Shown here one piece after another: positions 1-49,884 of a stretch of 50,455 bases of DNA; position 1 is the stretch's first letter, and every line of letters begins with the position of its first letter. The DNA comes from Candidatus Staskawiczbacteria bacterium RIFCSPHIGHO2_02_FULL_42_22. Lineage in GTDB: Bacteria > Patescibacteriota > Minisyncoccia > Minisyncoccales > Staskawiczbacteraceae. The notes beneath the pieces were generated by a model. The model was not told the origin of the DNA, searched no databases, and saw only the letters and a list, made by a program, of their open reading frames with translations. The translations under genes and the position numbers were made by a program. The stretch covers positions 1 to 50,455 of the forward strand of contig MHOT01000001.1 in NCBI GenBank assembly GCA_001820175.1, read 5' to 3'.

Positions 1-68
1 CAATGCCCTCAGTCGGGATTTTCCCGCCTTTCGGGCGGGATGAATCTGACAACTTTACGCAATGACGA
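1..68. repeat. Right half of a GTCATTGCGAG-type REP-like palindrome, carrying a nested hairpin module
   Basis: Ends in CGCAATGACG; the inner AGTCGGGATTTTCCCGCCTTTCGGGCGGGA recurs from 35662; followed by GTGAGGGGTTAC at 87-98. Confidence 0.8.
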
Positions 69-134
69 CGGGCGGGAGTGAGAGGTGTGAGGGGTTACCG
101 AAGTTTGGCGCTGTTCGGAAACAATCTCCTCCAC

Positions 135-229
135 CGTCATTGCGAGGCCGCGCGCATCAGCGCGGAGTTAAGCAATCCCCGCACAAACGTGGAGATTGCC
201 ACGTCGCCTGCTGGCTCCTCGCAATGACG
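135..229. repeat. GTCATTGCGAG-type REP-like palindrome
   Basis: Terminal inverted repeat CGTCATTGCGAG/CTCGCAATGACG with an inner GCAATC/GATTGC stem. Confidence 0.9.
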
Positions 230-264
230 AAAGAGGGCATTTCCAAACAGGGCCAGTTCAAGTT

Positions 265-293
265 TTGACAAAAGATAACTTTATGTGTATTAT
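265..293 (+). promoter_or_regulatory. Sigma70-type promoter
   Basis: TTGACA-17 bp-TATTAT upstream of the ORF at 341. Confidence 0.65.
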
Positions 294-340
294 TAAACCT
301 ATCGCTCTTTGAAAAACCAACAACTAAAAGGGGGCGTAAA

Positions 341-1243
341 ATGAACTCATTTTGCGACAATGTGCAACTTGCGTGGCAGGTTGTACATGCAACAGCGCAA
401 GCAGTATTGTCCATAAAGAGACCATCACAAGGAACAGAAAAAGATGAAGTTAATGTCGGTCATCACGCAATTGTTATCGAAGGAGACACTTTTTCTCAGA
501 CCCTTGGTTTGCAAATACTTGCCCACGCTGGAGGAAAATTTCTCACTGAAGAAAAACAAGACAAAGGTGTGGTCGCCGAAAGTAGACTCATTACTCAAGA
601 AGGGTTTGCTAGTGTGATGGAAGAAGAATTAGTTTGGATTTTTGACCCGCTTGATGGATCTTCATTCAAAAATCGTCAACTGCCGGAATGGAGCGTCTCT
701 TTAGGCGTTGTCAGTATGGGTAACCATATTGGTGGAGCAATATTCACTCCGGAAATTTTTGGCGGATTTGGCGTACTGGGCGAACGCACCAAAGGAGTCA
801 TGATTTATGAGCAGGGCAATTTTCGTTCAGCGTCAAATATGTTGTCTCAACAAAGGAAAAAATCAGTTGTCTTTATGGGCTTGGATACGTACTTTGTATC
901 AGGTTTTTCTCACTTTGTGCGCGAAATGGCAGTTGCCATCCAGACAACAAGTTCGACGAGTTGTGCTCTTGGGCTGGCATACTTAGTTGCTGGAAAAATA
1001 GATGCTTTGGTGCAACCAGTGCAGGCGCCCTGGGATTGGGCCGCGGGTTATCCGCTTGTCGAAGAGGTTGGGGGAAAATTCCAATTTTTCCATTATCGCG
1101 ATGGCAGTATAACAGCTCTTGCTCGGCCCGATGTAAAAAGCTATGATCCGGTTTGGAGGAATACTGCTTTTATAGCCGGAGAACCGGATATTGTTGATTG
1201 GCTCTTTGACCTTTTGCAACAAAATTGGCGCAGACCGCAATAA
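341..1243 (+). CDS. Inositol monophosphatase family protein
   Basis: EE, WIFDPLDGS and PWDWAAG motifs. Confidence 0.85.
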   Translation: MNSFCDNVQLAWQVVHATAQAVLSIKRPSQGTEKDEVNVGHHAIVIEGDTFSQTLGLQILAHAGGKFLTEEKQDKGVVAESRLITQEGFASVMEEELVWIFDPLDGSSFKNRQLPEWSVSLGVVSMGNHIGGAIFTPEIFGGFGVLGERTKGVMIYEQGNFRSASNMLSQQRKKSVVFMGLDTYFVSGFSHFVREMAVAIQTTSSTSCALGLAYLVAGKIDALVQPVQAPWDWAAGYPLVEEVGGKFQFFHYRDGSITALARPDVKSYDPVWRNTAFIAGEPDIVDWLFDLLQQNWRRPQ

Positions 1244-1256
1244 TTGCGCTAATACT

Positions 1257-1288
1257 GCCGCGTTTGTATTTTACGAATGCGGTTTTTT
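1257..1288 (+). terminator. Intrinsic terminator
   Basis: CCGCGTTTGTA/TACGAATGCGG stem (with G-U pairs) followed by a T run. Confidence 0.65.
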
Positions 1289-1307
1289 ATTATCTACAAC
1301 GGGGTAA

Positions 1308-1336
1308 TTGAAAAGAGTGGGCTTTTATGCTAATCT
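1308..1336 (+). promoter_or_regulatory. Sigma70-type promoter for the sugar operon
   Basis: TTGAAA-17 bp-TAATCT with an extended TGn. Confidence 0.5.
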
Positions 1337-1355
1337 ATTTTTAATATCTTAATAT

Positions 1356-3403: not shown

Positions 3404-3505
3404 GCATGCATAAGCAAGAACCGTGCATAAGCAAGAACCGTTCTTGCTTAATTGTTCTTGCTTAATTTCTTGCTTAATGCTTTTTGCTTATTGCTTATGC
3501 ATAAA
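3393..3505. repeat. Inverted array of short tandem repeats
   Basis: TGCATAAGCAAGAACCG x2 facing TTCTTGCTTAAT x3; terminal inverted repeat TTTATGCATAAGCA/TGCTTATGCATAAA. Confidence 0.85.
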
Positions 3506-3512
3506 CATAAAT

Positions 3513-4628: not shown

Positions 4629-5149
4629 TTAAAAAAAGAGCCATTTTTTTAGACAGGGATGGCGTGATAAATAAAAAAGCCAAAGAACATGACTACATAA
4701 AAAATTGGGGTGAGTTTGAGTTTTTACCCCATGTCGCAGATGTGATCAGCCAACTAAATAAAAAGTTTTTAGTCGTAGTAGCATCAAACCAACAAGGTAT
4801 ATCGCGGGGGCTTATGACACTAGATGATGTAAATAGTATTCATGCCAATATGAAGTCCGAGCTTAAAAAAAGTAATGCCATCATTGATAAAATTTATGTC
4901 TGTCCGCATTACATAAAAGAAAGGTGCGCATGTCGCAAACCAGAGCCGGGCATGATACTTCAGGCCGCCAAAGAGCTGGGCATAGACCTGCCAAATTCAT
5001 ATATGATTGGCGATAGCATTACTGATATTGAGGCCGGTAAAAAAGCAGGTTGTAAAACAGTATTATTCGGGGACACAACTGCTATGCAAAAGGTAAAGCC
5101 GGATTTTATTGCTCGCACTATCTTAGAAATCCCAAATTTTATCGGTTAA
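4625..5149 (+). CDS. gmhB: D,D-heptose 1,7-bisphosphate phosphatase-like HAD-IIIA hydrolase
   Basis: FLDRDGVIN, CPH..C.CRKP, MIGDSITD. Confidence 0.85.
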   Translation: MIKKRAIFLDRDGVINKKAKEHDYIKNWGEFEFLPHVADVISQLNKKFLVVVASNQQGISRGLMTLDDVNSIHANMKSELKKSNAIIDKIYVCPHYIKERCACRKPEPGMILQAAKELGIDLPNSYMIGDSITDIEAGKKAGCKTVLFGDTTAMQKVKPDFIARTILEIPNFIG

Positions 5150-5184
5150 AAAAACTCACTCTTACATATAAGGGCGAGTTTTTT
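5148..5184. terminator. Bidirectional terminator between convergent operons
   Basis: A run, AACTC/GAGTT-closed stem, T run. Confidence 0.65.
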
Positions 5185-5187
5185 GTT

Positions 5188-6284: not shown

Positions 6285-6463
6285 ATACCTTGGATTACGA
6301 AATGCCTTCGAGGTATTTTTTTCTAAATTTGGAGATAGAAATTTGATATAATTTTCAGGCTTGCCTAAAGGGCCCGCCTGAAAATTATAGCGAATTTGTA
6401 GCCCAAATTTAGAAAAAAGACCCGAAGCTCGCCTTTCTATGGGCATTTCGTAATCCAAGGTAT
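6285..6463. mobile_element. MITE-like long hairpin element (GGCTTGCC core family) overlapping a glycosyltransferase 3' end
   Basis: Perfect 22-bp terminal inverted repeat ATACCTTGGATTACGAAATGCC; core shared with the 7502 and 48492 elements. Confidence 0.75.
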
Positions 6464-7501: not shown

Positions 7502-7778
7502 TAGACCTGTTGCGTATTAAGGATTGTCGCGAAAATTGAAGATTTTGGATCAGAAATTTGATAGAATTTTTCGGCTTGCCTCCAGGCCCGGAGATGGGGA
7601 AATTTGTTGCTACAAATTTACCCACATCTTGACCAAAAAATTATAATTTGCTAAGCGAGAGAGGAAAGGAAGAATCGCAATTATTCTTTTACAAGCGAGC
7701 GACAAATTATACTAGGTATAGCGAATTTATGGCCAAAATATGCAATTTGCAGCAAATCCTTAATACGCAACGGGTCTA
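7502..7778. mobile_element. MITE-like hairpin element with two nested hairpin inserts
   Basis: 23/24-bp terminal inverted repeat TAGACCTGTTGCGTATTAAGGATT; core matches 48492-48651. Confidence 0.8.
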
Positions 7779-11785: not shown

Positions 11786-11979
11786 GTAACCCCTTCACAC
11801 CTCGTGCGCATTCCTGTCGTCATTGCGAGGAGCAGCGACCGCAATCGTGGACGACGTGGCAATCTAAACAAGAGTGACGATGGGATTGTCCCGATGGCTT
11901 TGTGCCATCGAGGATCCTCGATCTCATCGGGACTTCGTCACCCGCGTGCGCATCGCAATGACGGAGCGTGAGGGGTTAT
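11786..11979. repeat. Composite: GTAACCCC..CAC/GTGAGGGGTTA shell, REP 11818-11963, nested TCGAGGATCCTCGA module 11888-11933
   Basis: Three concentric inverted repeats visible in the sequence. Confidence 0.85.
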
Positions 11980-24696: not shown

Positions 24697-24949
24697 AATG
24701 CGAATCTCGTTTGGCAAAATATAAAAAGAGTTTCGGCCGCCCCTTTGGCGAGCCTCGCCTTTTGGCGGGTCTCTTTGCGGATAATTTTGAGGATGGGGAA
24801 AATTTACTGCGGTAAATTTTGCCTCGCATCCCGCCCGCCAGCTTTGTAAAAATGTGCTCGGCGTAGGCAAGCTACGCCTAAACATTTTTCCAAACCTGGC
24901 GCCAAAATTCTCTCGCAAATAGAGGCGATTGCCAAACGAGATTCGCATT
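24697..24949. mobile_element. MITE-like multi-hairpin element
   Basis: Perfect 21-bp terminal inverted repeat AATGCGAATCTCGTTTGGCAA; inner GGCGTAG-GCAAG-CTACGCC hairpin. Confidence 0.8.
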
Positions 24950-27061: not shown

Positions 27062-27185
27062 GAAATAGTTATCAGTTAATAGTTTGAAGTTTTGGTTAAC
27101 GGGTTTCTAGTTAACTAAAAACTAAAAAACTTAAACTATGAGCTGCGCCCCGCAGGGCGCGGCGAAACCTAAAACTAAAAACCAT
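27062..27185. repeat. Heptamer inverted array with an inserted GC hairpin
   Basis: TAGTT units facing AACTA units; GCTGCGCCCCGCAGGGCGCGGC at 27142-27163. Confidence 0.65.
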
Positions 27186-33221: not shown

Positions 33222-33707
33222 ATGAAAATTGCCATCGTTTCCGACACTCACGATAACATGGCCAACTTTAATAAAGTCATTGATTTTTTGAATGCACAAA
33301 AAATTACCACCATGCTTCACTGCGGAGATATTTGTAATCAAGAAACCGTCAACGAAGCGATTAAAAATTTTAACGGGGAAATATTATTTGTCAAAGGAAA
33401 TGGGGATTATGATTTGAAAAATTATAAAGACATGATGGAAATTGAGGCGGGGGGTGATGTAAAAAAGGGGCTTGGGCCAAAAAAAATTGCGTTTATCCAT
33501 TATCCGGAACTTGCCAGAAAACTAGCCGAGTCGGGGAAGTATGATATAGTATTTTACGGCCACACCCATAAGCCCTGGGAAGAGAAAGTAGGGAATTGTC
33601 GACTGGTAAACCCCGGAGAGTTGGCCGGCCAGCGTTTCAAGCCCTGTTTTGCTATATATGATACTGAAACCGATAATCTGGAACTTAAAATTTTGGAGAA
33701 GATGTAA
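33222..33707 (+). CDS. YfcE-type metallophosphoesterase
   Basis: SDTHDN, HCGD, GNGD, GHTH, NPG. Confidence 0.9.
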   Translation: MKIAIVSDTHDNMANFNKVIDFLNAQKITTMLHCGDICNQETVNEAIKNFNGEILFVKGNGDYDLKNYKDMMEIEAGGDVKKGLGPKKIAFIHYPELARKLAESGKYDIVFYGHTHKPWEEKVGNCRLVNPGELAGQRFKPCFAIYDTETDNLELKILEKM

Positions 33708-33727
33708 TTTTAGATATTAGAATAGAT

Positions 33728-33753
33728 AAAACACCAGTAACTTTGGTGTTTTT
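33728..33753. terminator. Intrinsic terminator
   Basis: AAAACACCA/TGGTGTTTTT. Confidence 0.65.
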
Positions 33754-33764
33754 GTTTTTGCCAC

Positions 33765-33793
33765 TTGACATCACTTCTTTTATTTAGTATACT
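33765..33793 (+). promoter_or_regulatory. Near-consensus sigma70 promoter
   Basis: TTGACA-17 bp-TATACT. Confidence 0.75.
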
Positions 33794-33847
33794 CACAATT
33801 ACATACTTTTTTAAAAAGTATTAATTAAAAGTTAAATAACATATTTT

Positions 33848-34228
33848 ATGGAAGATTTAAAATTTGAAAGATTCACGAAAATTGGAGGTAGATTTAGCAA
33901 TAAAATAAGTTTAAATAAAGCAGGTGGTTTTGGTTTTTCTTCTGGCTTCTTTAAGAAAAACAATATTAGTAAATATCCATATGTTATTATATTTTATTCA
34001 AAAAGGCCTATGGCAGTTGGGTTTTCTTTTTCGAAAGAACCAAAAGAAGGTGCGTTTAAAATTACTTTTTCAAATAGTAACACGGCATCAGTAAGCCCGA
34101 ATTCTTTTATGCGTGCTTATGAAATTAATGCAAAAGATTATTATGGTAAATATGAACCCCATCAACAGAAAATTAATGAAGGAGAGAATGTTTTTTATAT
34201 TCTGTTAGAGAAAAAAAATAAGGACTAG
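33848..34228 (+). CDS. Small basic hypothetical protein
   Basis: 126-aa ORF with its own promoter and terminator. Confidence 0.7.
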   Translation: MEDLKFERFTKIGGRFSNKISLNKAGGFGFSSGFFKKNNISKYPYVIIFYSKRPMAVGFSFSKEPKEGAFKITFSNSNTASVSPNSFMRAYEINAKDYYGKYEPHQQKINEGENVFYILLEKKNKD

Positions 34229-34229
34229 A

Positions 34230-34263
34230 AATCAAAAAAACCGTTGAATACGGTTTTTTTGAT
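34230..34263. terminator. Bidirectional terminator
   Basis: ATCAAAAAAACCGT/ACGGTTTTTTTGAT. Confidence 0.75.
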
Positions 34264-34331
34264 AAATATTGACGTAAAAGATAGCGATTACTTTTGGAAA
34301 GGTTGCGCTATCAAGTACGCGCCTTTCGGCT
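34234..34331 (-). ncRNA. Candidate small RNA convergent with the 33848 gene
   Basis: Minus-strand TTGCCT-16 bp-TATTAT promoter with TGn (34338-34365); GCC-GAAA-GGC and GATAGCG/CGCTATC stems; terminator. Confidence 0.4.
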
Positions 34332-34545
34332 TTTTTAATAATAACAGATTTGGCGTAGAAGGCAATGATTATTTAACCGAGTTCAACAATCAATTGCAAC
34401 ACCCGTGTAATTTAAGTTCATTTTAGTGGCCACGTTAAAGATTTTTTAAGCTTATTTCCCATTACAATTAATAGAAATGTGATCTCAATAGCTTTTTCCC
34501 TTCAGAAGTGTTGCAATTGATTGTTGAATTCAGCTTACAAGTAAT

Positions 34546-34884
34546 ATGAATAAAAAAGTGAAAACATTTAATTTTCCACCGCCCGATAAATTCAAAATTA
34601 ATGAAGCTAATTTTGAATTAAAACTAGGAAAATTTGAAAAAAAATTAAAAAATGAGTTTTCATTTGATGATGTTTTTAGATTAGTTCCAATGGTAATATT
34701 TTATCCCCCAGTTAATAGTTTTTGGTTTTTATCTACTCAACAAATGGAAATTGTTTATTTTGGTTATTGCATTTTTATGGTATTTACATTAGTCAATAAG
34801 GTATTCAATAATATACCTAGAAAAAATAATCCAAAAAATTTTATAGAGGATCTAAAAAAATCAAGCAAAGAGCATGGTGAGTAA
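34546..34884 (+). CDS. Hypothetical membrane protein
   Basis: AT-rich 112-aa ORF with hydrophobic segments. Confidence 0.45.
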   Translation: MNKKVKTFNFPPPDKFKINEANFELKLGKFEKKLKNEFSFDDVFRLVPMVIFYPPVNSFWFLSTQQMEIVYFGYCIFMVFTLVNKVFNNIPRKNNPKNFIEDLKKSSKEHGE

Positions 34885-34896
34885 TAGTTTTTCCCT

Positions 34897-35010
34897 CGTC
34901 ATTGTGAGGGGGCGCGCCGCCGAAGCAATTTTCGATTATTAGCAAGATTGCCGCGTCGCCCCGCTTACGATCGGGGCTCCTCGCAATGACGGTGGGGGTG
35001 TGGGGGTTAC
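34897..35010. repeat. REP-like palindrome plus a GGGGTTAC arm
   Basis: CGTCATTGTGAG/CTCGCAATGACG at 34897-34991. Confidence 0.85.
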
Positions 35011-35151
35011 GCCACAAGAGATTGACATTATTTATTAATAAGTGTAAAAATAGCCCACAGGGGGTAACCTAAAAGATGGTAGCATTCCTGACGTTTGCCA
35101 GTGGAGGCAGGTGGTATCTAGGAGGTGCTATGCTTTTTTGAGGAGGGAAGC

Positions 35152-35403
35152 GTGACACGGGAAGAGGTGTTCAGAAAAATTGGGGAGGTTGGCCTCCCTG
35201 AAGACACGGATGTAACGCTGAAGGCACTGCTAGCTCTGGGGGCGAACCCTTCTGATGTCCTACAGATTTCTGAAGGATTCAAAACCGTCTTGAAGGGCTG
35301 GCAAGTTGCCCGAGGCGAAGCAGATTCCCTGAGCAGGGAAGTGGAGATTCTGCGCCGCCGCCTGGCGGATCTGGAGAAACACCGTGTTTCTCATGTGGCA
35401 TGA
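35152..35403 (+). CDS. GC-rich small orphan protein with a C-terminal coiled coil
   Basis: GAGGAGG RBS before GTG 35152; TTGACA at 35022; downstream palindrome. Confidence 0.55.
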   Translation: MTREEVFRKIGEVGLPEDTDVTLKALLALGANPSDVLQISEGFKTVLKGWQVARGEADSLSREVEILRRRLADLEKHRVSHVA

Positions 35404-35450
35404 TGCCTCGATTGTTGCGGAGGACCCCTCTTGCAACCAAATGTATTCGA

Positions 35451-35488
35451 AAGCTCGGCAGAACATGTTCTGCCGAGCTTAAATTTTT
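35451..35488 (+). terminator. Perfect 30-bp palindrome, probable terminator
   Basis: AAGCTCGGCAGAACATGTTCTGCCGAGCTT followed by a T-rich tail. Confidence 0.55.
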
Positions 35489-35497
35489 AATGGCGGA

Positions 35498-35748
35498 GTA
35501 ACTGCTCACTGGCTTCCAACCAACCACCATACCCCAGGCGTCATTGCGAGGCCGGAGACGGGGCGAATTTGTTGCGACAAATTACGCCTCGCGTCTGGCC
35601 AGCCGTGGCAATCCCTGTTCGTTTTAGTGGTGGAGATTGCCGCGTCGCGTGCGCGCTCCTGAGTCGGGATTTTCCCGCCTTTCGGGCGGGAGAAATCTCG
35701 CGACTTTACGCAATGACGGGAGGTGTAACATGTCCAGTGAGCAGTTAC
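35498..35748. repeat. Composite: GTAACTGCTCACTGG shell, REP 35539-35718, two nested hairpin modules
   Basis: Perfect 15-bp outer inverted repeat; modules at 35555-35596 and 35661-35708. Confidence 0.88.
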
Positions 35749-35759
35749 ATGGCGGACTC

Positions 35760-35788
35760 TTGCAAATTTTCATAAAACTGTTTACAAT
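35760..35788 (+). promoter_or_regulatory. secDF promoter
   Basis: TTGCAA-17 bp-TACAAT. Confidence 0.6.
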
Positions 35789-35821
35789 AAAAAATCAGTT
35801 TTTTTGAATCTCATTCATTTT

Positions 35822-37243: not shown

Positions 37244-37245
37244 CA

Positions 37246-37345
37246 GCGATCCTAATTTACGAATATCATCCGAATGATCCGAATAAAAACTTCTAGGTGA
37301 CGTTATTCGGAACATTCGGATGTAGATTTGGATCATTCGGATCGC
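37246..37345. repeat. Inverted TCCGAAT/ATTCGGA array between secD and secF
   Basis: GCGATCC/GGATCGC ends enclosing repeated units. Confidence 0.8.
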
Positions 37346-39584: not shown

Positions 39585-39815
39585 ATGATTATTTACTTTT
39601 TTTGGGGAAGCATCGCTTTACTTATAGCAACCCTCATTTTTTATGCGGTTTTCTTTGCTTTGGCCAACTATTGGAAAGAGACCCCAGTAAATTTGGTGGT
39701 TGTTCCACTGCTGTACACTTTCGATTTTTTCATCATTGGTTTTGTGGTCATTGCATCGCTTTCCATTTTTTTCCAATACTTACCAGATATTATCAAAGTG
39801 GCCGGCTCATCCTAA
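39585..39815 (+). CDS. Small two-TM membrane protein
   Basis: Hydrophobic 76-aa ORF; TTGATT-16 bp-TATAAT upstream. Confidence 0.65.
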   Translation: MIIYFFWGSIALLIATLIFYAVFFALANYWKETPVNLVVVPLLYTFDFFIIGFVVIASLSIFFQYLPDIIKVAGSS

Positions 39816-39968
39816 ATTTGAAATTTGAAATTTGAAATTTGAAATTTGAAATTTGAAATTTGAAATCAATTTGAAATATTTGAATTTAAAATAATTAAAT
39901 CGGTCAATATTTTGCTTTGTCAAAATGTTGACACCTAATTATTGAAAATTGAAAATTGAAAATTGAAA
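39814..39968. repeat. Heptamer tandem arrays
   Basis: AAATTTG x7 (39814-39862) and ATTGAAA x4 (39941-39968). Confidence 0.9.
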
Positions 39969-39998
39969 ATTCAATTTCAAACTTTTTTTGAAATTGTT

Positions 39999-41466: not shown

Positions 41467-43425
41467 ATGGATAACAAAAAAGTAACATTTTTTGGATTAA
41501 CTTCCTTTAGGAATCAACAAAAAAAGTTTGGCATCAAGCAGGATGATCGCCGGCGTCACTTTTATGCCATCGGAAAAACCGGTATGGGCAAGTCCAACCT
41601 CATGGAAAATATGGCCATTCAAGATATCCAAAATGGAAATGGTATTGCCTATGTCGATCCGCACGGGGAAGGCGCCGACAAGCTATTAGATTTTGTACCC
41701 GCTGAGCGCATCAAAGACGTGATTTTTTTAAATCCCGCCGATTTGGATTTTCCCATTGCCTTTAATGTCATGGAAAAGGTGGACTTTAAGTACCGGCACT
41801 TAGTGGCCGGCGGGCTGATGGGGGTGTTTAAAAAGGTCTGGCCGGATGTCTGGTCAGCCCGTATGGAATACATTTTAAACAACGTTATTTTGGCGCTTTT
41901 GGAATACCCCGATTCAACCCTTTTGGGAGTCAACCGCATGTTGGCGGACCCCGAATACCGCGCCAAGGTAGTGGCGGAAGTCAAAGACCCTATTATCCGG
42001 TCTTTCTGGGTGACTGAGTACGCCCGTTACACTCAGCGCTATGAAATAGAAGCCACGGCGGCTATTCAAAACAAAGTGGGGCAGTTTGTGTCCAATGCTT
42101 TGATCCGCAATATTATTGGACAGACAAAGTCCACCATTGATATGCGCCGCATTATGGATGAGCAAAAAATTCTCATTTTGGACTTATCAAAAGGCCGCAT
42201 CGGGGAAGATAATTCACGGCTATTAGGTGCGCTGCTTATTACCAAGATTCAGTTGGCGGCCATGTCGCGGGTGGATACTCCCGAACAAGAACGTAACGAC
42301 TTTTATTTATACGTTGATGAATTCCAGAACTTTGCCACCGAATCATTTGCCAATATTTTGTCCGAGGCCAGAAAATACCGATTGTGTTTGATTGTGGGGC
42401 ACCAGTATATCACCCAAATGGAAGAAGAAGTGCGCGATGCTATATTTGGAAACGTGGGAACGATGGCCGTTTTTCGGGTGGGCGCGGAAGACGCCGAATT
42501 TTTGGAAAAAGAATTTTCACCGGAGTTTATGGCAACGGATTTGGTAAACTTAAGCAAGTATAATATCTATTTAAAGTTAATGATTGATGGTGTGGCCAGT
42601 CACCCATTTTCGGCAAAAACATTGTCGCCGCCAGTGCCTTTAGAACAATCCAATCGAGATAAAATTATTGACGCTTCCCGCGAACGCTATGGAGTGGCGC
42701 GCGAAATTGTAGAAGATAAAATTATGCGCTGGACTGAAGGTGGTGGTGATGGCGCTTCTCAAAAAACTGAAACCAACAAAAGACCCGGCGTTTTTAGTGC
42801 CCCCAAATCAATGAGAAGCGAGGGGCGTCAAGACCATCAAAAAAACCAACAAGGCGACACCGAGCAAAAACTGTATGATGCCGTATGTTCTTTATGCAAC
42901 AAGCCGACAAAAATTATTTTTGAACCGATTGAAGGCCGCCCGGTGTATTGCAAATCATGCCTTAAAAAGATTAAAAAAGCTGCCGAAGAAAAAAATAACA
43001 TTGAGTATCCGCGTGTTTCCATGGGAGATTTCCAGCCAAAAAAAGGAGAACTGTCATCCGCGCCCTCAAGTAAAAGCACTGTAGAAAATATTCCTTTTCG
43101 CTTGTCTTCAAATAAGGGGTCCAGTCGGGCACCTGAAAATTCCCGTTCGCCAACGGCACCGGTCGGCGGCCAGAAGGGAGGGATACAACGTAAAGAAATT
43201 AATTTGTCGGAATTAAAAAAAGCCATTACTGATTCATTAGCCCACCAATCAAAGGATGTAACAGAAGAGGAAGAAGCAGATGATGCACCCGATGCACCAG
43301 CGGCGCTGCCAGAAAAACAATCTTTTGCAGAGGAAAATCCGGCGTCAAAATCGCCAAAATCACCACCGGCGCCAAAAGAAGAAAAAAATAAAATTATTAA
43401 TCCGGGTGGAAAAATTGGAATCTAG
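41467..43425 (+). CDS. VirD4/TraD-like coupling ATPase with a CxxC-x17-CxxC zinc-ribbon tail
   Basis: Walker A GKTGMGKS, DPHGE, Walker B YVDEFQ, SEARKY; CSLC-x17-CKSC. Confidence 0.88.
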   Translation: MDNKKVTFFGLTSFRNQQKKFGIKQDDRRRHFYAIGKTGMGKSNLMENMAIQDIQNGNGIAYVDPHGEGADKLLDFVPAERIKDVIFLNPADLDFPIAFNVMEKVDFKYRHLVAGGLMGVFKKVWPDVWSARMEYILNNVILALLEYPDSTLLGVNRMLADPEYRAKVVAEVKDPIIRSFWVTEYARYTQRYEIEATAAIQNKVGQFVSNALIRNIIGQTKSTIDMRRIMDEQKILILDLSKGRIGEDNSRLLGALLITKIQLAAMSRVDTPEQERNDFYLYVDEFQNFATESFANILSEARKYRLCLIVGHQYITQMEEEVRDAIFGNVGTMAVFRVGAEDAEFLEKEFSPEFMATDLVNLSKYNIYLKLMIDGVASHPFSAKTLSPPVPLEQSNRDKIIDASRERYGVAREIVEDKIMRWTEGGGDGASQKTETNKRPGVFSAPKSMRSEGRQDHQKNQQGDTEQKLYDAVCSLCNKPTKIIFEPIEGRPVYCKSCLKKIKKAAEEKNNIEYPRVSMGDFQPKKGELSSAPSSKSTVENIPFRLSSNKGSSRAPENSRSPTAPVGGQKGGIQRKEINLSELKKAITDSLAHQSKDVTEEEEADDAPDAPAALPEKQSFAEENPASKSPKSPPAPKEEKNKIINPGGKIGI

Positions 43426-43430
43426 TCCTC

Positions 43431-43581
43431 GTGACCCCTTGCATCTCACTTATTCATTCCCGTCATTGCGAGGAGGAGCGACCGCGGTCGGGACGACGCG
43501 GCAATCTCGTTTCATGTAATTAAGAGAGATTGCTTCGTCATCTGCGCCTTCCTCGCAATGACAAGAGGCGTGAGGGGTTAC
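43431..43581. repeat. GT(A/G)ACCCC shell plus REP 43461-43562
   Basis: First 52 bp of the REP differ at 1 nt from the copy at 49790. Confidence 0.88.
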
Positions 43582-43599
43582 TAGTTCTCTTGTAAAACC

Positions 43600-44637
43600 A
43601 TGAAATATCTTACTGATTTTGATGTGGAGAATAAAAGGGTGTTGGTGCGCTGCGATTTTAATGTGCCCCTTGATGATACGGGAAATATTTTAGACGACTT
43701 CAGGATTAAAAAAACGCTACCGACCTTACAATATTTGCTTTCAAAAAAAGCAAGAATAATATTAATGAGCCATTTAGGGGAGGCGGAAGGCAAGGTAGTG
43801 GAGGGCTTAAGGTTGGGGCCAATTAAAAATACACTGGAAGAATTATTGGGCCTTTCCATAAAAAAAACCACTGATTGTATCGGTCGCGAAACCAATGACC
43901 AGGTAATGCAACTTGCGGCAGGGGAAATTATACTGCTGGAAAACCTAAGGTTTCACAAAGAAGAAGCCGAAAATAATGCGGAATTTGCCAAAGAGCTTGC
44001 GGGGCTTGGCCAAGTATATATTAATGATGCTTTTTCGGTCTGCCACCGAAACCATGCTTCGGTGTCGGCCATTTGTCAATTTTTACCTTCCTTTGCCGGC
44101 TTGCTACTGGCAGAAGAAATAAAAAACTTAACAAAAATTTTGGAGAATCCCTCGCGCCCGATGCTGGCAATAATTGGCGGAGCAAAAGTAAAAACGAAAG
44201 TAATGTTTATTGAAACATTTTCAAAAATAGCTGACACGGTTATCATTAATGGACTAATAAAAAAAGAAATACTGCAAGAAAACATACATCTTAAACATCC
44301 CGAAAAAATAATAAGCCAGATTGATCCGTCGCCCTCCCTTGACATCAGCCAAGAGAGCATTAATGTGTTTAAAGAAAAAATCATGGCAGCCAAAACGATC
44401 GTATGGAACGGCCCGTTCGGAAAATTTGAAGAAAAAAAGTATGAAACCGGTACGCTGGAAATTGCCAAGGCCATTATTAAAAGCCAGGCATTTTCGGTGG
44501 TAGGCGGGGGAGAGACCATTGAATTTTTACACAAAGAGGGTATACTCTCACAATTCAGCCACGTCTCCCTGGGCGGCGGGGCAATGCTAAGTTTCCTGGC
44601 CGGAGAACAGTTGCCGGGACTGGTGGCTTTGGGATAA
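43600..44637 (+). CDS. pgk: Phosphoglycerate kinase (short form)
   Basis: RCDFNVP, LENLRF, GGAK, WNGP.G.FE, GGGET, GGGA. Confidence 0.93.
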   Translation: MKYLTDFDVENKRVLVRCDFNVPLDDTGNILDDFRIKKTLPTLQYLLSKKARIILMSHLGEAEGKVVEGLRLGPIKNTLEELLGLSIKKTTDCIGRETNDQVMQLAAGEIILLENLRFHKEEAENNAEFAKELAGLGQVYINDAFSVCHRNHASVSAICQFLPSFAGLLLAEEIKNLTKILENPSRPMLAIIGGAKVKTKVMFIETFSKIADTVIINGLIKKEILQENIHLKHPEKIISQIDPSPSLDISQESINVFKEKIMAAKTIVWNGPFGKFEEKKYETGTLEIAKAIIKSQAFSVVGGGETIEFLHKEGILSQFSHVSLGGGAMLSFLAGEQLPGLVALG

Positions 44638-44641
44638 CATT

Positions 44642-45247
44642 ATGAAAGTTATTATCGCGCGCCATGCAAAAACCAATGAAAACGCCGGGGAAATCATCAT
44701 CGGCCAGGAATCAGAAGTCCTTTTAAATGAAGAGGGGGTTTTGCAAGCAAACAAATTGGCCGATTTTTTAAGAAAAGAAACCATTCGTGTTGCATACGTA
44801 AGCCCGCAGAAACGGGCAGTGCATACGGGAAGGGAAGTGCTTGCTAATCATCCTAAAGTTAAACTCATTCACGCGCCTCATTTAAAAGAACAGAATTTGG
44901 GGATTTATGAAGCGTTGGGAAAAGCTGAATGGAAAGAGATAAAAAAACAAGCCAAGGATCCATTTCATTTATTCAAGCCACCCCAGGGCGAATCGTATTT
45001 AGAATTACAAAAAAGGGCAAGGGTTTTTTTTGATTATTTAATGGAATTCCACGAACATGACACGGTTTTTATGGTCAGCCACGGAGGAACGTTGGGCGTA
45101 TTATATTTGGATTTGTTTGGCAAGGAGCTGACTGAAGAAAATTATAGAGCCCACAAGCCGGAAAATACCGCGGTAACTATTTTGGAGATTTCCAAAAACA
45201 GCCCCATAAAGGTACACAAGCTAAATAGCTTAGAGCATCTTGATTAG
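44642..45247 (+). CDS. Histidine phosphatase / phosphoglycerate mutase family protein
   Basis: ARHAKT (RHG variant), SP.KRA..T, GES, VSHGG. Confidence 0.88.
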   Translation: MKVIIARHAKTNENAGEIIIGQESEVLLNEEGVLQANKLADFLRKETIRVAYVSPQKRAVHTGREVLANHPKVKLIHAPHLKEQNLGIYEALGKAEWKEIKKQAKDPFHLFKPPQGESYLELQKRARVFFDYLMEFHEHDTVFMVSHGGTLGVLYLDLFGKELTEENYRAHKPENTAVTILEISKNSPIKVHKLNSLEHLD

Positions 45248-45261
45248 TTACACTTTGGGCA

Positions 45262-45402
45262 CTTGGTGTTGGTGATATTGTTGAATTTTTAGAAAAAGAA
45301 GGTATGCTTTCACAATTCAGCCGCGTTTCTATTGGCAGAGGAGCGATGTTAAGTTTTTTGGCAGGCGAAGAGTTACCGGTGTTAAAAGCATTAGAAAAAT
45401 AA
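45262..45402 (+). pseudogene. Degenerate duplicate of the pgk 3' end
   Basis: Translates to GVGDIVEFLEKEGMLSQFSRVSIGRGAMLSFLAGEELPVLKALEK*. Confidence 0.85.
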
Positions 45403-45417
45403 TCAATTTTCAAGTTT

Positions 45418-45453
45418 AACTATTCGCTTGTTCGTACGAATAAGCGAATAGTT
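45418..45453. repeat. CGAATA-type palindrome
   Basis: AACTATTCGCTTGTTCG/CGAATAAGCGAATAGTT. Confidence 0.7.
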
Positions 45454-45463
45454 TGTAAAAAAT

Positions 45464-46415
45464 ATGCCAGGAGAACTGCCATCAAGCGAAAATCCAAAAG
45501 AAGAATTACAGCCAGATTTTTTATTGCCAGATCAACAGCCATCAATAGAAGAACGAGAGGGTAAAGAATATAACTTTGATATAATGAATAAAGCAGAGGT
45601 TTCAATGGCTCGCTTAGTCAAGAAATTAAAAAATAACATTGAAGATGGAGATTACAGCGCCCTACTGAGCGATGATACGGGCGGTAGAATTCCAACATTA
45701 GTTTTAAGGAAAATAATGTTGGAAAAGGGGCCGAATAAAAATATAAAGACATATTTTTTGTCGGCCGGATTGGGTAATACTCCCATGAAATTTATGGATG
45801 ATCGTTCGGAAAAAAGAAAATATCAAAAAATGATAACATACCTTAAAAATATGGATTTTGGAGATAAAAAGTTATTGGTTGTTACGGAATATATGAGCAT
45901 GGGCAATACTTTGGATGGTATAGGCGAAGCATTAAAAGACATTGGGGCAAATTTTGATTTTGCCATACAATCTACTAATGAAGATTATGATAAAGTAGAT
46001 AGGTTGACGGATGCTTTTTATGGTGAATTTAATGCAGAATCTTTTGTTGGAATAAATAAACCTATTCAATACGATAATTCTTTAATGGGAGTGTTAAAAA
46101 GAGGAGAGGATAGAGGAAGATATTCTCCCATACCAGAAACTATTATAAAGCATGTAAAAAATGAAGGAAGAGAATTGTCGGAAGAGGATATTAATAAAAT
46201 TTTTGGTATAAATTCATGGGACGACGTTTTTACAAGGGTGCATAAAAAAAGATCCAGAATTGCTAAAAAAATACAACAAAGTGAAGATGGGGCCACTAAC
46301 AAAAAAAGAAAAAAATGAAATTCAAAGGAATATAAATTTAGCAAGGGAGGATGTGAGTTTAATGATTGAAAGAATTATTGAACAGGTTTGGCCAAAAGAA
46401 GATATAGAAAAATAA
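45464..46415 (+). CDS. Hypothetical protein with a PRTase-like motif, probably frameshifted at the A7 run 46244-46250
   Basis: LLVVTEYMSMG.T motif; an alternate frame from 46251 stays open to TAA 46415. Confidence 0.55.
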
Positions 46416-46417
46416 CT

Positions 46418-46590
46418 ATGGAATTAATCAGGGATTTTAAAAAACTCAATAAACACGATGCCGTCATTGCCGGCGGCAAAGGCACTTCTCTTTTTTTGGG
46501 GGGGCGAAAATCGCCATAGATGTCATAAAAACAGGTGATGTGGTAGAGTTAGGTGCGGATAACGGTATAATTAAGATTATAAAATGGTAA
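46418..46590 (+). pseudogene. Collapsed PEP synthase/PEP-utilizing enzyme remnant
   Basis: MELIRDFKKLNKHDAVIAGGKGTSL joined out of frame to KIAIDVIKTGDVVELGADNGIIKII. Confidence 0.65.
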
Positions 46591-46733
46591 CTGCTCACTG
46601 AACATGAAAAATAGGATCAATTACCTTTTTCCGTCATTGCGAGCCGCCCGCAGGCGGCGTGGCAATCCAGTAGTTTTACGTAAAGATTGCTTCGGCGCTC
46701 CTCGCAATGACGATTTGGCCAGTGAGCAGTTAC
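46587..46733. repeat. GTAACTGCTCACTG shell plus REP 46632-46712
   Basis: Perfect 14-bp outer inverted repeat. Confidence 0.88.
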
Positions 46734-47052
46734 AAAAAAAGAATTGAAAAGAATCACTGTTGGGGAAGCGGTAGAAGAAAAGGGAAATATGGATGTTGAA
46801 ATGACGATTGACGCGCTGCATAATTTAGTCAAGTATCACACCGCAGTATTCTTTACAGGGGACAGTGATTTTTTGGCATTAGTGGTTTATCTGAAAAATC
46901 AAAATAAAAAAGTGTATATTTTTTCTTCACGAAATAATATCTCGCAGGAATTACGAACGGGCGCGGATGGCTACACGGATATTTTAGGTATCAATGAAAT
47001 GTGGGGCAGAGAACTAAAGCACAAAGAGGAATTACCTAAGCAAAGTAGATAA
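46729..47052 (+). pseudogene. C-terminal half of a NYN/LabA (PIN-like) nuclease
   Basis: KGNMDVEMTID, TGDSDF, S.ELR..AD; the N-terminal motif is missing and the frame begins at the repeat edge. Confidence 0.8.
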
Positions 47053-47123
47053 AAAAACAACCCTCCTTGCGGAGGGTTGCCCTTGGATGTAATACCCTTT
47101 TAGTTTTGGAAAACTAAAAGACA
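47051..47123 (-). ncRNA. Candidate small RNA convergent with the NYN gene
   Basis: Minus-strand promoter, 10-bp stem, and a GCAA-loop terminator with its U7 on the minus strand; no ORF. Confidence 0.55.
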
Positions 47124-47128
47124 CCCTG

Positions 47129-47157
47129 ATTGTATTCTAATTACATATGTATGTCAA
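47129..47157 (-). promoter_or_regulatory. Near-consensus sigma70 promoter, antisense orientation
   Basis: Minus strand TTGACA-17 bp-TACAAT. Confidence 0.7.
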
Positions 47158-48386
47158 TAGTCAAAAATAAAATCAAAAACTTAGAAAACGTGGCCGGGAG
47201 GATCAAAAAAGCCGTTTACGATAACGGGCGTATTATTATTTACGGTGATTCGGATATGGATGGTATTGCATCATCAGTTATTTTACAGGAAGCCATAAAA
47301 AACTTAGGGGGTGGGGTGGGCATGGTGTTGTTTCCTAATCGGGAAGAGGATGGTTACGGTATTAATTTTCGGGCCATTGAATATGTTCGCGATAAGGCAC
47401 CCGCCTTCGCCAAAGGCTTCGGCCCACTTCGCCATAGCTCCAGCGAGGCGAGCGAGGCAAGGCCCGCGCTTTTTATTACCCTGGATTTGGGGATTACCAA
47501 TATTAAAGAAGTAGATGCTTTAAACGCGCTAGGGTTTAGTGTTATCATTATTGATCATCATCAAATTTTAAACGGTTTGCCGGCGGCGGAAATTATCATT
47601 GATCCAAAACAAGAAGGCGATGATTCCAATTCAACTCATTTGGCTAACGTTGGAATTACATTTTTGTTGGCACAAGAATTGTTGGGAGGCCAAATGTCTA
47701 TGCAATTGAAGAATAGTTTTTTGGAGCTTACGGCGTTGGCCACTATTTCGGACATGGTGCCGCAAATCGAAGAAAATAAAATGTTTATTGAAGAGGGCTT
47801 GCGGTCCCTAAAAAACACCTTTCGGCCCGGCCTTCGGGCATTTTTAGATATTTTGGGCGAAGGCACCGTGTTGTCGGATGGGCTATATAAAGTAATTTCG
47901 GCGCTGAATGCGGCCGAGTCCATTGATTTTAAAAATGAATCGTATCAATTATTAACCACCGCTTCGGCTACGGAGGCCCGCGATTTGGCAGAAAAACTGA
48001 TCGGCAAGACCAATTATAAGCAGCAAAAAATTAAAGAAGCGGTGGATGAAGTTGAACGCAGGATTTCGCAAAACCCCGATGCGTCGATTATTTTTGAAGG
48101 GGATCCGGCTTGGAAGTTAACCTTGGCAGGTCCCATTGCATCTATTATTGCCCAAAAATACCAAAAACCAACCTTTATTTTTAAAAAAGGCGACAGTGAG
48201 TCATGCGGCTCAGTGCGGAGTTTGGTTGAAGGTGAGGACTCGGTCCAAGCCATGAAAACCTGCGCCGATATATTAGTTACGTATGGGGGGCACGCCAAGG
48301 CCTCGGGGTTTCGGATAAAAAATGGGAACCTTGAAAGATTTAAAAAAGCCCTAAGTGAACATTTTAAAAATATTAATTCAAGGTAA
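47151..48386 (+). CDS. recJ: ssDNA exonuclease RecJ (DHH family) with a 21-aa in-frame repeat insert
   Basis: GDSDMDG, GYG, IDHH, TISD, GS.RS, GGH..ASG. Confidence 0.88.
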   Translation: MSIVKNKIKNLENVAGRIKKAVYDNGRIIIYGDSDMDGIASSVILQEAIKNLGGGVGMVLFPNREEDGYGINFRAIEYVRDKAPAFAKGFGPLRHSSSEASEARPALFITLDLGITNIKEVDALNALGFSVIIIDHHQILNGLPAAEIIIDPKQEGDDSNSTHLANVGITFLLAQELLGGQMSMQLKNSFLELTALATISDMVPQIEENKMFIEEGLRSLKNTFRPGLRAFLDILGEGTVLSDGLYKVISALNAAESIDFKNESYQLLTTASATEARDLAEKLIGKTNYKQQKIKEAVDEVERRISQNPDASIIFEGDPAWKLTLAGPIASIIAQKYQKPTFIFKKGDSESCGSVRSLVEGEDSVQAMKTCADILVTYGGHAKASGFRIKNGNLERFKKALSEHFKNINSR

Positions 48387-48395
48387 TTGCAAATA

Positions 48396-48672
48396 GGACT
48401 TACGCGTTTGCGTCATTGCGAGCCGCAGCGAAGCAATCTTAATACGTAGATTGCCACGCCGCGCCCCGCGGGGCGCGGCTCGCAATGACACTAGACCTGT
48501 CCCTAAATAAGATTTGTTACGAAAATTACAGATTTTGAGCTAGAAATTTGATAGAATTTTTCGGCTTGCCCATAGGCCCGTCGAAAAATTCTAGCAAATT
48601 TGTAGCCAAAATATGCAATTTGCAGTAAAATCTTATTTAGGGACAGGTCTACTGACGCAAACGCGTAAATCC
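48396..48672. repeat. Composite: GGACTTACGCGTTTGCGTCA shell, REP 48411-48489, TAGACC element 48492-48651
   Basis: 19/20-bp outer inverted repeat; inner perfect 24-bp inverted repeat. Confidence 0.88.
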
Positions 48673-48686
48673 CAACAAAAATAACC

Positions 48687-49733
48687 ATGATTCTTAATCA
48701 AAAAATATATACGGTGGAAAGTGTAACTTCGGGGCATCCCGATAAAGTGTGCGACCAAATTTCAGATGCTATTTTAGATGCGTGTTTGGCCGAAGATCCC
48801 AATTCGAAAGTGGCAGTTGAATCGTTTGGCGGCCACGGGCTTTTGGTGGTCGGTGGCGAAGTGACTACCTTGGCAAGGGTAAATTATGAACAAGTAGCCA
48901 AAAACGTCTATAAAAATATTGGATACGACCAGAACTTAAACATGATCGTAAATATTGCAGAGCAATCGCCCGATATTGCTATGGGTGTAAATACCGGCGG
49001 CGCGGGCGACCAGGGGATTATGTATGGATTCGCGTGTGACCAGACACCAGAATTTCTTCCGTGGGCAATTGTAAAAGTGCATGCGTTGGCAAAAGGGCTG
49101 GAAGTACTGCGAAAAACAGGTGCTATTACGTGGCTGAAACCAGATGGTAAAACACAAATAACCATGGATCATGGAAAAGTAAGAACCGTGCTGGTAAGTG
49201 CCCAGCACGACGTTGGTGTTTTGCAAGATGAAATAAAACGGGTGCTGACAGAAAAATTAATCAAACCGATTATTGGCGATGTGACTGGTGTTGAAATTTT
49301 AGTAAACCCTACCGGTAAATTTATCCAGGGCGGATTTGAAGCTGATACGGGTTTGACGGGGCGCAAAATCATGGTAGATACTTATTGTGGTTTGGTATTT
49401 CATGGCGGCGGATGTTTTTCTGGTAAAGATGCCAGTAAGGTTGATAGGTCCGGTGCGTATATGGCTCGATTTGTTGCTAAAAATTTGGTGGCATCGGGTC
49501 GCGCCAAGGAATGCCTGGTTTCGGTGGCCTATGCTATTGGGAAGGTGGAACCATTAATGGTGCAAGCCATCAATGAAAAGGGCGAAGATTTGAGCGCATT
49601 AGCAATTGAGAAATTTGATTTTCGTCCGCAAGCCATCATTGAAGCGCTTAACCTTAAAAAACCCATCTATCAACAAACTGCCGCCTACGGACACTTTGGA
49701 AAAGCCGGTTTGCCTTGGGAGGATATCATATAA
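48687..49733 (+). CDS. metK: S-adenosylmethionine synthetase
   Basis: ESVT.GHPDK.CDQISD, GAGDQG, GLTGRKI, GGGCFSGKD. Confidence 0.96.
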   Translation: MILNQKIYTVESVTSGHPDKVCDQISDAILDACLAEDPNSKVAVESFGGHGLLVVGGEVTTLARVNYEQVAKNVYKNIGYDQNLNMIVNIAEQSPDIAMGVNTGGAGDQGIMYGFACDQTPEFLPWAIVKVHALAKGLEVLRKTGAITWLKPDGKTQITMDHGKVRTVLVSAQHDVGVLQDEIKRVLTEKLIKPIIGDVTGVEILVNPTGKFIQGGFEADTGLTGRKIMVDTYCGLVFHGGGCFSGKDASKVDRSGAYMARFVAKNLVASGRAKECLVSVAYAIGKVEPLMVQAINEKGEDLSALAIEKFDFRPQAIIEALNLKKPIYQQTAAYGHFGKAGLPWEDII

Positions 49734-49751
49734 CTCACCTTACATCCCTTT

Positions 49752-49884
49752 GTCATTGCGAGGAGCCGTAACCCCTCACCCCCACTCACCGTCATTGCGA
49801 GGAGGAGCGACCGCAGTCGGGACGACGCGGCAATCTCGTTTTATTCAATTGAGTGGGATTGCTTCGCTGTGGCTCGCAATGACG
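49752..49884. repeat. Truncated REP arm, GTAACCCCTCAC arm, and full REP 49790-49884
   Basis: Two GTCATTGCGAGGAG starts and one CTCGCAATGACG end. Confidence 0.85.

Follow-up and report, generated by a model that had tools for sequence, protein, structure and literature searches.

Single-domain GIY-YIG nucleases of the Ssn type and their hairpin targets are the closest described system to the repeats reported here. SsnA, a 94-aa enzyme of this type, cuts a few nucleotides upstream of the CGTC in NTS (CGTCATTCCCGCGMAVGCGGGAATCYRG), a subset of the Neisseria dRS3 repeats that is bound as single-stranded DNA (ssDNA) and on one strand only (PMC11893778; for this source and for PMC3733652, here and throughout, statements cover the parts of the text consulted). 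The biochemistry of Chenal et al. (2025) covers Neisseria and Wolbachia homologues; SRM hairpins, for which the search pattern HGTCWYN(0-2)YYVSBRHN(0-5)WNVSBRGN(0-2)RNCYNB was given, lie on both sides of ssnA homologues in 42% of cases (PMC11893778). The NTS-ssnA-NTS layout resembles an insertion sequence (IS), and NTS-gene-NTS arrangements reduce transformation in Neisseria, a domesticated role in transformation control being the interpretation favoured (PMC11893778). In the present work we analysed a complete 50,455-nt contig (the window) of Candidatus Staskawiczbacteria bacterium RIFCSPHIGHO2_02_FULL_42_22, whose genome carries a core family of CGTC-tagged hairpins, arranged largely as inverted dimers, in and around which other short palindromes are nested. 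In relatives and in other phyla, inverted arms of this core family bracket a small GIY-YIG gene. We consider it probable that this small genome has been colonised by at least six non-autonomous, nested palindrome families, the core being a class related to the Ssn hairpins and the other layers separate families.

A second point of comparison is provided by the CGTC repetitive extragenic palindromic (REP) sequences, which carry an unpaired CGTC (or TGTC/CCTC) tag, an 8-9-bp stem that opens with A-T pairs, and a 4-5-nt loop. The Neisseria dRS3 repeat was equated with CGTC-1, all CGTC-1 dimers of H. neapolitanus lie within a 41-bp palindrome for which no empty target was found, and the consulted parts report no association of CGTC REPs with a transposase or other enzyme (PMC3733652). 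Our literature searches found no report joining GIY-YIG with repetitive extragenic palindromic sequences and, among the papers listed, none on palindromic, REP or MITE (miniature inverted-repeat transposable element) repeats of this kind in Patescibacteria or the Candidate Phyla Radiation (CPR); the core 11-mer GTCATTGCGAG gave chance primer matches only.

The genome of the window comprises 821,145 nt in 30 contigs, is 95% complete and has a G+C content of about 0.41. It is called G000 below, other G codes being genomes of the same genus and C numbers contigs of G000, with the window as C1. DNA of the window was found in groundwater and soil metagenomes (nine public runs, Logan contigs), and contigs of four other public runs span 34898-35010 and 43431-43581 with 0 differences. 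Since independent contigs match the elements exactly, the repeats are not an artefact of a single assembly. Rfam gave 0 families at gathering score over the whole window and, at E≤1 over 43380-50000, only chance miRNA and leader matches, so the elements are explained by no known RNA family. A map of 12-mers with at least four copies was dropped because A/T-rich low-complexity words dominated it.

Core arms were searched with GTCATTGCGAG, allowing at most one mismatch, and arms less than 450 nt apart were scored as an inverted pair; arms whose terminus is split by module R (see below) are not counted as pairs under this method. The window contains 17 arms against 0.57 expected, a number reached by 0 of 100 shuffles. 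Genome-wide there are 250 core arms, 192 of them in 96 inverted dimers of 62-404 nt and 58 solo, and the paired elements total 11.3 kb of 821 kb. The preliminary description of this DNA had noticed about 11 core copies or halves in the window, a figure borne out by seven intact dimers, one dimer with an interrupted right terminus, and single or incomplete arms at 29340, at 49752 and where the contig starts. The element reads GTCATTGCGAG...CTCGCAATGAC and consists of two CGTC-tagged hairpins in inverted orientation. The layout of an arm is (Y)C-GTC-ATTGC-GAG-inner hairpin-(C)G(A/T/C)(A/G)-GCAAT-CT, and a loop of 0-25 nt separates the two facing arms. The base at -1 is C in 217 of the 250 arms, indicating that the true arm start is CGTC, and the base at -2 is a pyrimidine in 230 of them.

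Within an arm, the closing stem of 5 bp (ATTGC/GCAAT) is followed by GA-rich internal loops and then by an inner stem of 2-10 bp. Arm interiors measure 10-75 nt, with inner hairpins of discrete lengths (10, 12, 16, 18, 24, 28 and 30 nt); the constant skeleton blocks GTCATTGCGAG and GAAGCAATCT bound every variable part, and dimers mostly pair one short with one long arm. In 90 arms the inner stem reaches 3 bp or more; these arms present 56 distinct stem-plus-loop versions (CGCA loop in 54), and their stems hold 429 Watson-Crick pairs, 2 G-T and 3 A-C. G-T is not in excess over A-C (2 vs 3), and the data do not favour an RNA structure over DNA. The CGCA/TGCG tetraloop is also the commonest among perfect hairpins (stem of at least 5 bp) genome-wide, with 70 of 1767, half of these outside core arms. 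Folded as ssDNA, core dimers are branched, with z-scores from -3.9 to -6.6, and a 263-nt composite with shell B reaches -71.8 kcal/mol (z -6.9).

The preliminary description had suggested looking for small GIY-YIG genes flanked by the repeats, and this search was productive: core arms bracket such a gene in G003, in G023 and at four loci of other phyla among the 120 listed. In G003 (locus L138) a core arm pair surrounds an open reading frame (ORF) of 96 aa with a PF01541 match at E 2e-16, a domain matched by two small GIY-YIG proteins; no NCBIfam model matched the arm-flanked protein. A phmmer search with this protein against the ORFs of the 120 listed foreign loci returned matches in four loci, and in 5 of 5 cases inverted arms bracket the ORF: L138 itself, L041 (Oscillospiraceae), L044 (Planctomycetota), L102 (Falkowbacteria) and L112 (a metagenome-assembled genome of Bacillota). 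The G023 protein (L148), 77% identical to that of G003, is again bracketed by arms, and a G005 paralogue, 51% identical, is bracketed instead by a canonical TGTCATTCCCGCGAAAGCGGGAATCCAG hairpin, indicating that nuclease type and hairpin type co-vary. The presence of a GIY-YIG gene between core arms places the core with the already described CGTC-REP and Ssn-SRM repeats (PMC3733652, PMC11893778).

The foreign loci come from a cross-phylum scan of one genome per species (596 Gb), in which at least 120 loci were listed; for a lone pattern match, about 500 occurrences are estimated by chance in this volume. A complete inverted pair with the core skeleton is present in 67 of the 120 listed loci. 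These pairs occur in Chloroflexota, Planctomycetota, Nitrospirota, Zixibacteria, several proteobacterial classes, Bacillota, many CPR lineages and Bacteroidota isolates, the cultured carriers being Pedobacter, Chryseobacterium, Hymenobacter, Sporomusa and Chloroflexus. In G000, the SRM pattern gave 17 matches, 14 of which belong to a canonical second family (TGTCATTCCCGC.. / TGTCATCCCGGG..) and none to the 250 core arms. From their sequence we read the core arms as an Ssn-related class (NTS/SRM; CGTC REPs) that is both divergent and extended, has the variant ATTGCGAG and is missed by the published search pattern. In the same way we read arm-GIY-YIG gene-arm as a gene-carrying, IS-like form, and the dimers of 62-146 nt as its putative gene-less, MITE-like derivatives.

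The core dimers are often enclosed by further inverted repeats. Shell A (GTAACCCCTCAC...GTGAGGGGTTAC) and the related shell B (GTAACTGCTCACTG) were scanned over the whole genome with at most two mismatches, and 106 of the 140 matches have a core or family-2 arm within the next 60 nt; one and the same shell type surrounds both SRM types, the core and the canonical family 2. Among the 96 core dimers, 26 have a shell at either end, 21 at one end only and 49 have none; where present, shell and core are separated by a variable 5 to 45 nt. Exact shell A is present in 39 copies in G000 and in at most five in any other genome of the genus, being nearly absent, also from G003 and G032; G003 has 32 core arms and no exact shell A. 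The rarity of exact shell A where core arms occur indicates that shell and core are separable. Shell C is a real inverted repeat of low copy number (one exact match in the genome, three with at most two mismatches). A palindrome of 47 nt at C12:51304-51350 ends like shell A and has nothing but CGTCATTGACG in its centre; this single case may represent an empty shell or an excision footprint and is too little to define an insertion point for the core.

The shells also bear a fixed relation to promoter-like words. In 15 of 106 arms, TTGAC stands precisely 11 nt beyond the end of shell A or B; in 2 it is 10 nt beyond, and in 6 at another offset up to 60 nt; a control word had 0 occurrences at the TTGAC offsets, and TAnnnT stands at -10 spacing in 14 of 20. 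These data indicate that the elements often lie at a fixed distance upstream of the -35 boxes of differing promoters, as at 35011-35060.

Several smaller hairpin modules are found inside these elements. Module Q (about 45 nt, AGAYG..AATTTGT-TGCG-ACAAATT..CRTCT) corresponds to the TGC(G/T)-loop hairpins at 7601, 24808 and 35566 of the window. It occurs at 42 places, of which core arms account for 14, a TA-flanked MITE for 13, two further elements for 6 and 2, and other locations for 7; it sits in the hairpin tips of at least four host elements, its stems differ compensatorily, and it has matches in G021 and G029, both with 0 core arms. Module R (48 nt, with AGTCGGGATTTTCCCGCC; at 11 and 35662) is directly followed by CGCA in 10 of 13 copies, at two different kinds of site: nine split the arm terminus CTCCT^CGCAATGAC (or CGCAATAAC) and one is placed in the loop of an inner hairpin, GCGCC^CGCAGG. 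Module S, which is about 44 nt long and contains TCGAGGATCCTCGA, is found in the window within 11889-11932 and at 27771; at 11 places it has the junction GATTG^TCCCGA in the inner stem. Three S copies lie outside core arms (C13:70629, C18:53985 and secA), and G003 has one S at the same site. Module P is a 22-nt palindrome, sometimes in tandem with a diverged copy, and 11 of 12 copies are surrounded by a direct repeat (CGAAGCA; GAAGCA...TGCGAAG, 7 nt). S and P are both placed at CGAAG^C of the inner stem, P being nearly confined to one core-arm site, in one orientation and mostly on one contig. Inner hairpins with GCGCCCCGC (27145-27164 and 48457-48477) recur genome-wide, as do Q, R and S. Of the 96 dimers, 66 are plain, and P was found in 11, Q in 9, S in 7, the MITE in 3 and R in 1.

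The junctions of Q, R, S and P are base-exact across independent host arms of differing sequence. The nesting is real, and the claim of the preliminary description that several non-autonomous hairpin families are nested at fixed positions holds. Its three shells lie where it had placed them, A and B as described and C as an inverted repeat of low copy number, and its four small modules were recovered at or beside their reported places. Its contention that modules are independent of a single host is upheld by the distribution of Q, and the core in turn is independent of the shells, as the 49 unshelled dimers and the arms of G003 demonstrate. That a module moves on its own is well supported in the case of Q; for the other modules it is plausible.

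The MITE just mentioned is a separate family of about 160 nt (TAGACCTGT...ACAGGTCTA), present in about 46 copies (93 end motifs); its terminal inverted repeats are long, and the copies inspected have TA at both junctions. It sits alone, beside core dimers or within dimer loops. MITEs derived from IS630 that duplicate TA are known elsewhere, for example the pneumococcal RUP and the Neisseria Correia elements. The TA-MITE shares with IS630-type MITEs its terminal inverted repeats and TA flanks, and the genome has one intact DDE_3 gene of this type; the match of ends is weak, those of the IS630 gene (TATAGCCTGTTAAAAAC...) resembling the MITE ends over TAG(A)CCTGT only.

Evidence bearing on movement was obtained from copy similarity, gene order and metagenomes. 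Near-identical copies exist, a core composite at 94-96% and the TA-MITE at 48492-48651 at 100% to C21:5773-5932. Arm counts in the genus are 211 in G000, then 115, 43, 32, 18, 15, 8 and 5, while six genomes have three or fewer and twelve have 0; among 200 other genomes sampled from the phylum (0.4-2.1 Mb) the top count was 36, versus 192 in G000. In G002, G021, G023, G026 and G011 the DHH gene directly neighbours the RNase H gene (0-30 nt); the two are 1.5 kb apart in G000, where the gap holds a composite element, metK and core pieces (48396-49883). The bracketing of metK (48687-49733; TIGR01034, 419 bits) by elements is laid out like NTS-gene-NTS of Neisseria (PMC11893778). Similarly, the distance from the gene at 33222-33707 to secD is 18-146 nt in relatives and 2.1 kb in G000, the extra stretch (33708-35803) holding two core composites and two small ORFs without Pfam matches (33848-34228 and 34546-34884). 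In the metagenome comparison, made with unitig contigs from four public runs, contigs of all four show a joint 35660->35709 that omits exactly module R. This joint was rejected as an R-less allele and counted as a paralogue because only 24 nt fit on its shorter side and a near-identical R-less copy exists at C2:7957-8089; the other joints were alike.

The search for mobilising enzymes in G000 gave 0 matches to Y1_Tnp (PF01797), to which control genomes respond, and 0 each to TnpB, IS110 and rve. Besides the intact IS630-type gene, the genome encodes one broken DDE_Tnp_1 fragment, one tyrosine recombinase and one reverse transcriptase, which were rejected as mobilisers, none being linked to the hairpins. 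The reverse transcriptase (C23:34152-34763) and four Avd-like four-helix-bundle genes (C12:3416-3778 and three paralogues) may form a diversity-generating retroelement. The largest multi-copy ORF family, with six members by self-BLAST (C13:31656-32591, C22:4116-4958, C28:8487-9227, C6:4030-4731, C8:23128-23967 and C13:35917-36237), varies at the N-terminus and is conserved in a C-terminal domain, ...PILADALEDAGC..HCRGPGPHVRGCWVLDLLL (ILADALEDAGC..HVRGCWVLDLLL), and two members adjoin core elements; it was rejected as a transposase, not being recognisable as one. Another multi-copy ORF family proved to be a repeat element read as protein. GIY-YIG matches in G000 are two: a 526-aa frame, which we take to be UvrC, and an 85-aa gene at C10:27929-28186, whose protein is 33-35% identical to that of G003.

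The candidate enzyme of the core is an Ssn-like GIY-YIG nuclease, whose nicking of ssDNA, probably at replication forks or on incoming ssDNA, would drive the copying of arm pairs to new sites. The other layers have site rules of their own, with shells around either SRM type, R immediately 5' of CGCA, S and P at CGAAG^C and Q in hairpin tips, next to an IS630-like family of about 160-nt MITEs with TA flanks. The nesting itself may arise because hairpin loops expose short single-stranded target words and because existing repeats are nearly the sole neutral landing ground in a gene-dense genome of 0.8 Mb; the placement of modules in hairpins fits targeting as well as survival of insertions in neutral repeat DNA. 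The repeats of G000 would be mobilised in trans by the distant small GIY-YIG protein or by an unassembled or foreign gene, or would be recent orphans. As a tentative extension of this scheme, arm-ssn-arm might constitute new mobile elements driven by GIY-YIG nucleases, with the dimers as their MITEs and Q, R, S and P as smaller ssDNA parasites recognising short words, chiefly CGCA/TGCG, exposed in the loops and junctions of other hairpins; such a multi-level ecosystem would bracket accessory genes such as metK and dock 11 bp upstream of -35 boxes.

Several observations weigh against an Ssn-driven mobile family. Ssn nucleases have been demonstrated to cut, not to transpose (PMC11893778), and the pattern of Chenal et al. 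fits none of the core arms. The G000 assembly contains no cognate Ssn gene, and its sole small GIY-YIG gene is flanked by TA-MITEs, not by arms. Among the relatives, a close homologue of the arm-flanked gene is present in G003 (32 arms), G005 (15) and G023 (5), and the arm-richest genomes, G000 (211), G032 (115) and G033 (43), are without one, their best matches having 29-36% identity. The variable shell-core spacer misfits precise insertion at a fixed shell site, and P could have been carried along passively by the arm that hosts it. We observed no transposition event and found no filled/empty strain pair, the same-genus relatives being only about 70% identical to G000 in DNA and the metagenome contigs giving paralogue-type joints.

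A rival reading has survivorship and gene conversion in place of targeting: a few families would insert more or less at random, only insertions into existing repeats and gene ends would survive in a compact genome, and conversion among about 100 core copies would shuffle the modules. The gene density of a genome in which paired core elements occupy so little space agrees with this, as do the skeleton blocks around every variable part, which are ideal for short-patch conversion, the mixing of short and long arms within dimers and the confinement of P. We consider it unlikely; Q lies in unrelated hosts and in genomes that lack the core, R occupies two kinds of site having only CGCA in common, S occurs outside core arms, and the junctions are base-exact in independent, differently sequenced arms. 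We regard as less likely still that the repeats are domesticated functional DNA, either Ssn-type nuclease sites limiting ssDNA uptake and recombination or promoter-proximal and terminator structures, with inner stems diversified by template-switch palindrome correction. Such a role would be in line with the lowered transformation caused by NTS-gene-NTS in Neisseria (PMC11893778) and the element-bracketed metK here, and the near-perfect inner stems would fit a hairpin-preserving process or selection; the fixed TTGAC distance and the prevalence of the CGCA/TGCG tetraloop point the same way. Against it stand the lack of a cognate nuclease gene in the assembly, an arm in frame within secA, and a spread of about 100-fold in copy number among species of one genus, which argues against a conserved host function; the arm-gene-arm arrangement, moreover, turns up in one phylum after another, as a unit that moves horizontally should.

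The analogy drawn in the preliminary description, with REP/REPIN elements driven by RAYT (a Y1 HUH transposase), did not stand in a genome without Y1 transposase, TnpB or IS110. Its appeal lies in a REPIN-like architecture, two imperfect palindromes in inverted orientation that carry a tetranucleotide tag on the 5' side, and in most modules being without target duplications. It is highly improbable, since PF01797 and TnpB are missing from a 95%-complete genome, the tag is CGTC, not GTAG, CGTC REPs are described without a transposase association (PMC3733652), and the gene found between arms encodes a GIY-YIG protein. An Ssn-related core with separate nested families is the reading that we retain.

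Along the window, the contig starts within a composite (1-98) in which R (10-57) splits the right terminus of a core arm (CGCAATGAC, 58-66), followed by a spacer and a shell A arm at 87-98. A core dimer of two inverted CGTC-tagged arms without shell lies at 136-228 (fold z -4.4). At 7502-7778 there is a TA-flanked MITE (TAGACCTGT...ACGGGTCTA) with a Q-type hairpin whose tip is at 7601-7618. The element at 11786-11979 (fold z -4.7) has shell A (11786-11798 / 11968-11979) around a dimer (11819-11962) that carries S (11889-11932) in its inner stem. A palindromic element with 21-nt perfect arms at 24697-24949 contains the Q-type hairpin AAAATTTAC-TGCG-GTAAATTTT, with the loop at 24808. Just upstream of secA, outside core arms, an inner hairpin of the form GAG-stem-CGCA-stem-CGAA stands alone on the plus strand (27139-27168), and a solo long-form core arm (29338-29373, plus strand) lies in frame within secA (27187-29805), reading VSSLRGATATRQS.

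Further along, the dimer at 34898-34990 is accompanied by a single shell A arm (34998-35010), with TTGACA 11 nt past the shell end. The most elaborate structure is the four-level composite at 35498-35748, with the folding energy and z-score given above: shell B (35498-35511 / 35735-35748) surrounds the interrupted dimer (35540-35717), in which Q (35554-35598) occupies the left arm and R (35661-35708) splits the right terminus directly 5' of CGCAATGAC. Shell A (43431-43442 / 43570-43581) encloses the dimer 43462-43562 in an element (43431-43581; fold z -5.9) that is spanned by an independent contig, and shell B (46587-46600 / 46720-46733) encloses the dimer 46633-46711 (46587-46733; fold z -3.9). 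Shell C (48396-48415 / 48653-48672) surrounds both a dimer (48412-48489) and the TA-MITE 48492-48651; this composite (48396-48672) brackets metK together with the group at 49752-49883, which consists of a truncated arm (49752-49767), a shell A arm (49768-49779) and the dimer 49791-49883.

Other features were observed in the same stretch. In secA, the region of aa ~170-235 (nt 27700-27890) contains the S-like hairpin at 27771-27788 and resembles another insertion in the SecA DEAD domain, which Pfam matched in two pieces. Perfect 22-nt arms (ATACCTTGGATTACGAAATGCC...) at 6285-6463 surround a palindrome with 48-nt arms akin to the TA-MITE centre. The secD-secF spacer (37245-37345) holds an A/T-rich palindromic repeat, CATCCGAATGATCCGAATAA / TTATTCGGAACATTCGGATG, with many matches in most genomes of the genus; this repeat is a further, older family. 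Tandem heptamers (AAATTTG, GAAAATT) at 39812-39996, where metagenome contigs reach a summed depth above 1000, are probably a simple repeat common to many organisms. A TraG/VirD4-like coupling-protein gene (41467-43425; TrwB_AAD_bind, TraG-D_C), with a paralogue on C8, is followed directly by a shell-A composite.

These findings bear on a system described only in 2025, which may represent mobile elements or domesticated tools. An abundant hairpin class spread across phyla and missed by the published pattern indicates that the family is larger than reported, and the coexistence in one genus of arm-gene-arm and gene-less forms with 100-fold copy differences is what one would expect from an IS and its MITEs. 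Four smaller hairpin families without a known enzyme follow base-exact nesting rules. Bracketed accessory genes, a fixed promoter distance and the in-frame arm of secA give the extent of repeat dynamics in a symbiont-type genome of 0.8 Mb, and each arm/nuclease pair is a candidate new specificity for ssDNA-cutting tools.

Nesting of small hairpins has a counterpart in the SDR repeats of Nostoc punctiforme, which Elhai et al. (2008) are said to have described as hairpins of 21-27 nt with compensatory stem changes, nested in other repeats and in their own copies; we know of no enzyme for them. The present repeats differ in phylum and sequence, their hosts are Ssn-type hairpins and MITEs, their site rules are base-defined, and their stems have no G-T bias pointing to an RNA intermediate. 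From REP/REPIN elements with RAYT the core differs in its tag, (Y)CGTC in place of GTAG. With the CGTC REPs of Di Nocera (PMC3733652) it shares, as far as the consulted parts describe them, the tag, the A-T stem start, the short tail, inverted dimers, a preference for heterodimers and intragenic copies. Its stem and loop sizes differ from theirs, core arms being branched and 28-75 nt long, and in relatives the core has a GIY-YIG gene between its arms, besides further nested module families. To our knowledge, multi-level nesting with site rules for four hairpin families has not been described for Ssn-type repeats. Like the Ssn/SRM repeats (PMC11893778), the core is a hairpin of defined orientation, with CGTC on the 5' side and a C following the palindrome (CGTCATTGCGAG..GAAGCAATCTAG), occurs in hundreds of copies, frequent inverted pairs and several phyla, and brackets a single-domain GIY-YIG gene of about 94-96 aa (in relatives, not in G000) or other genes. 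It departs from them in a stem split by GA-rich internal loops, with a hypervariable inner hairpin of 2-10 bp, in a richest genome without a close ssn gene, and in arms that host inserted modules and lie themselves inside shells.

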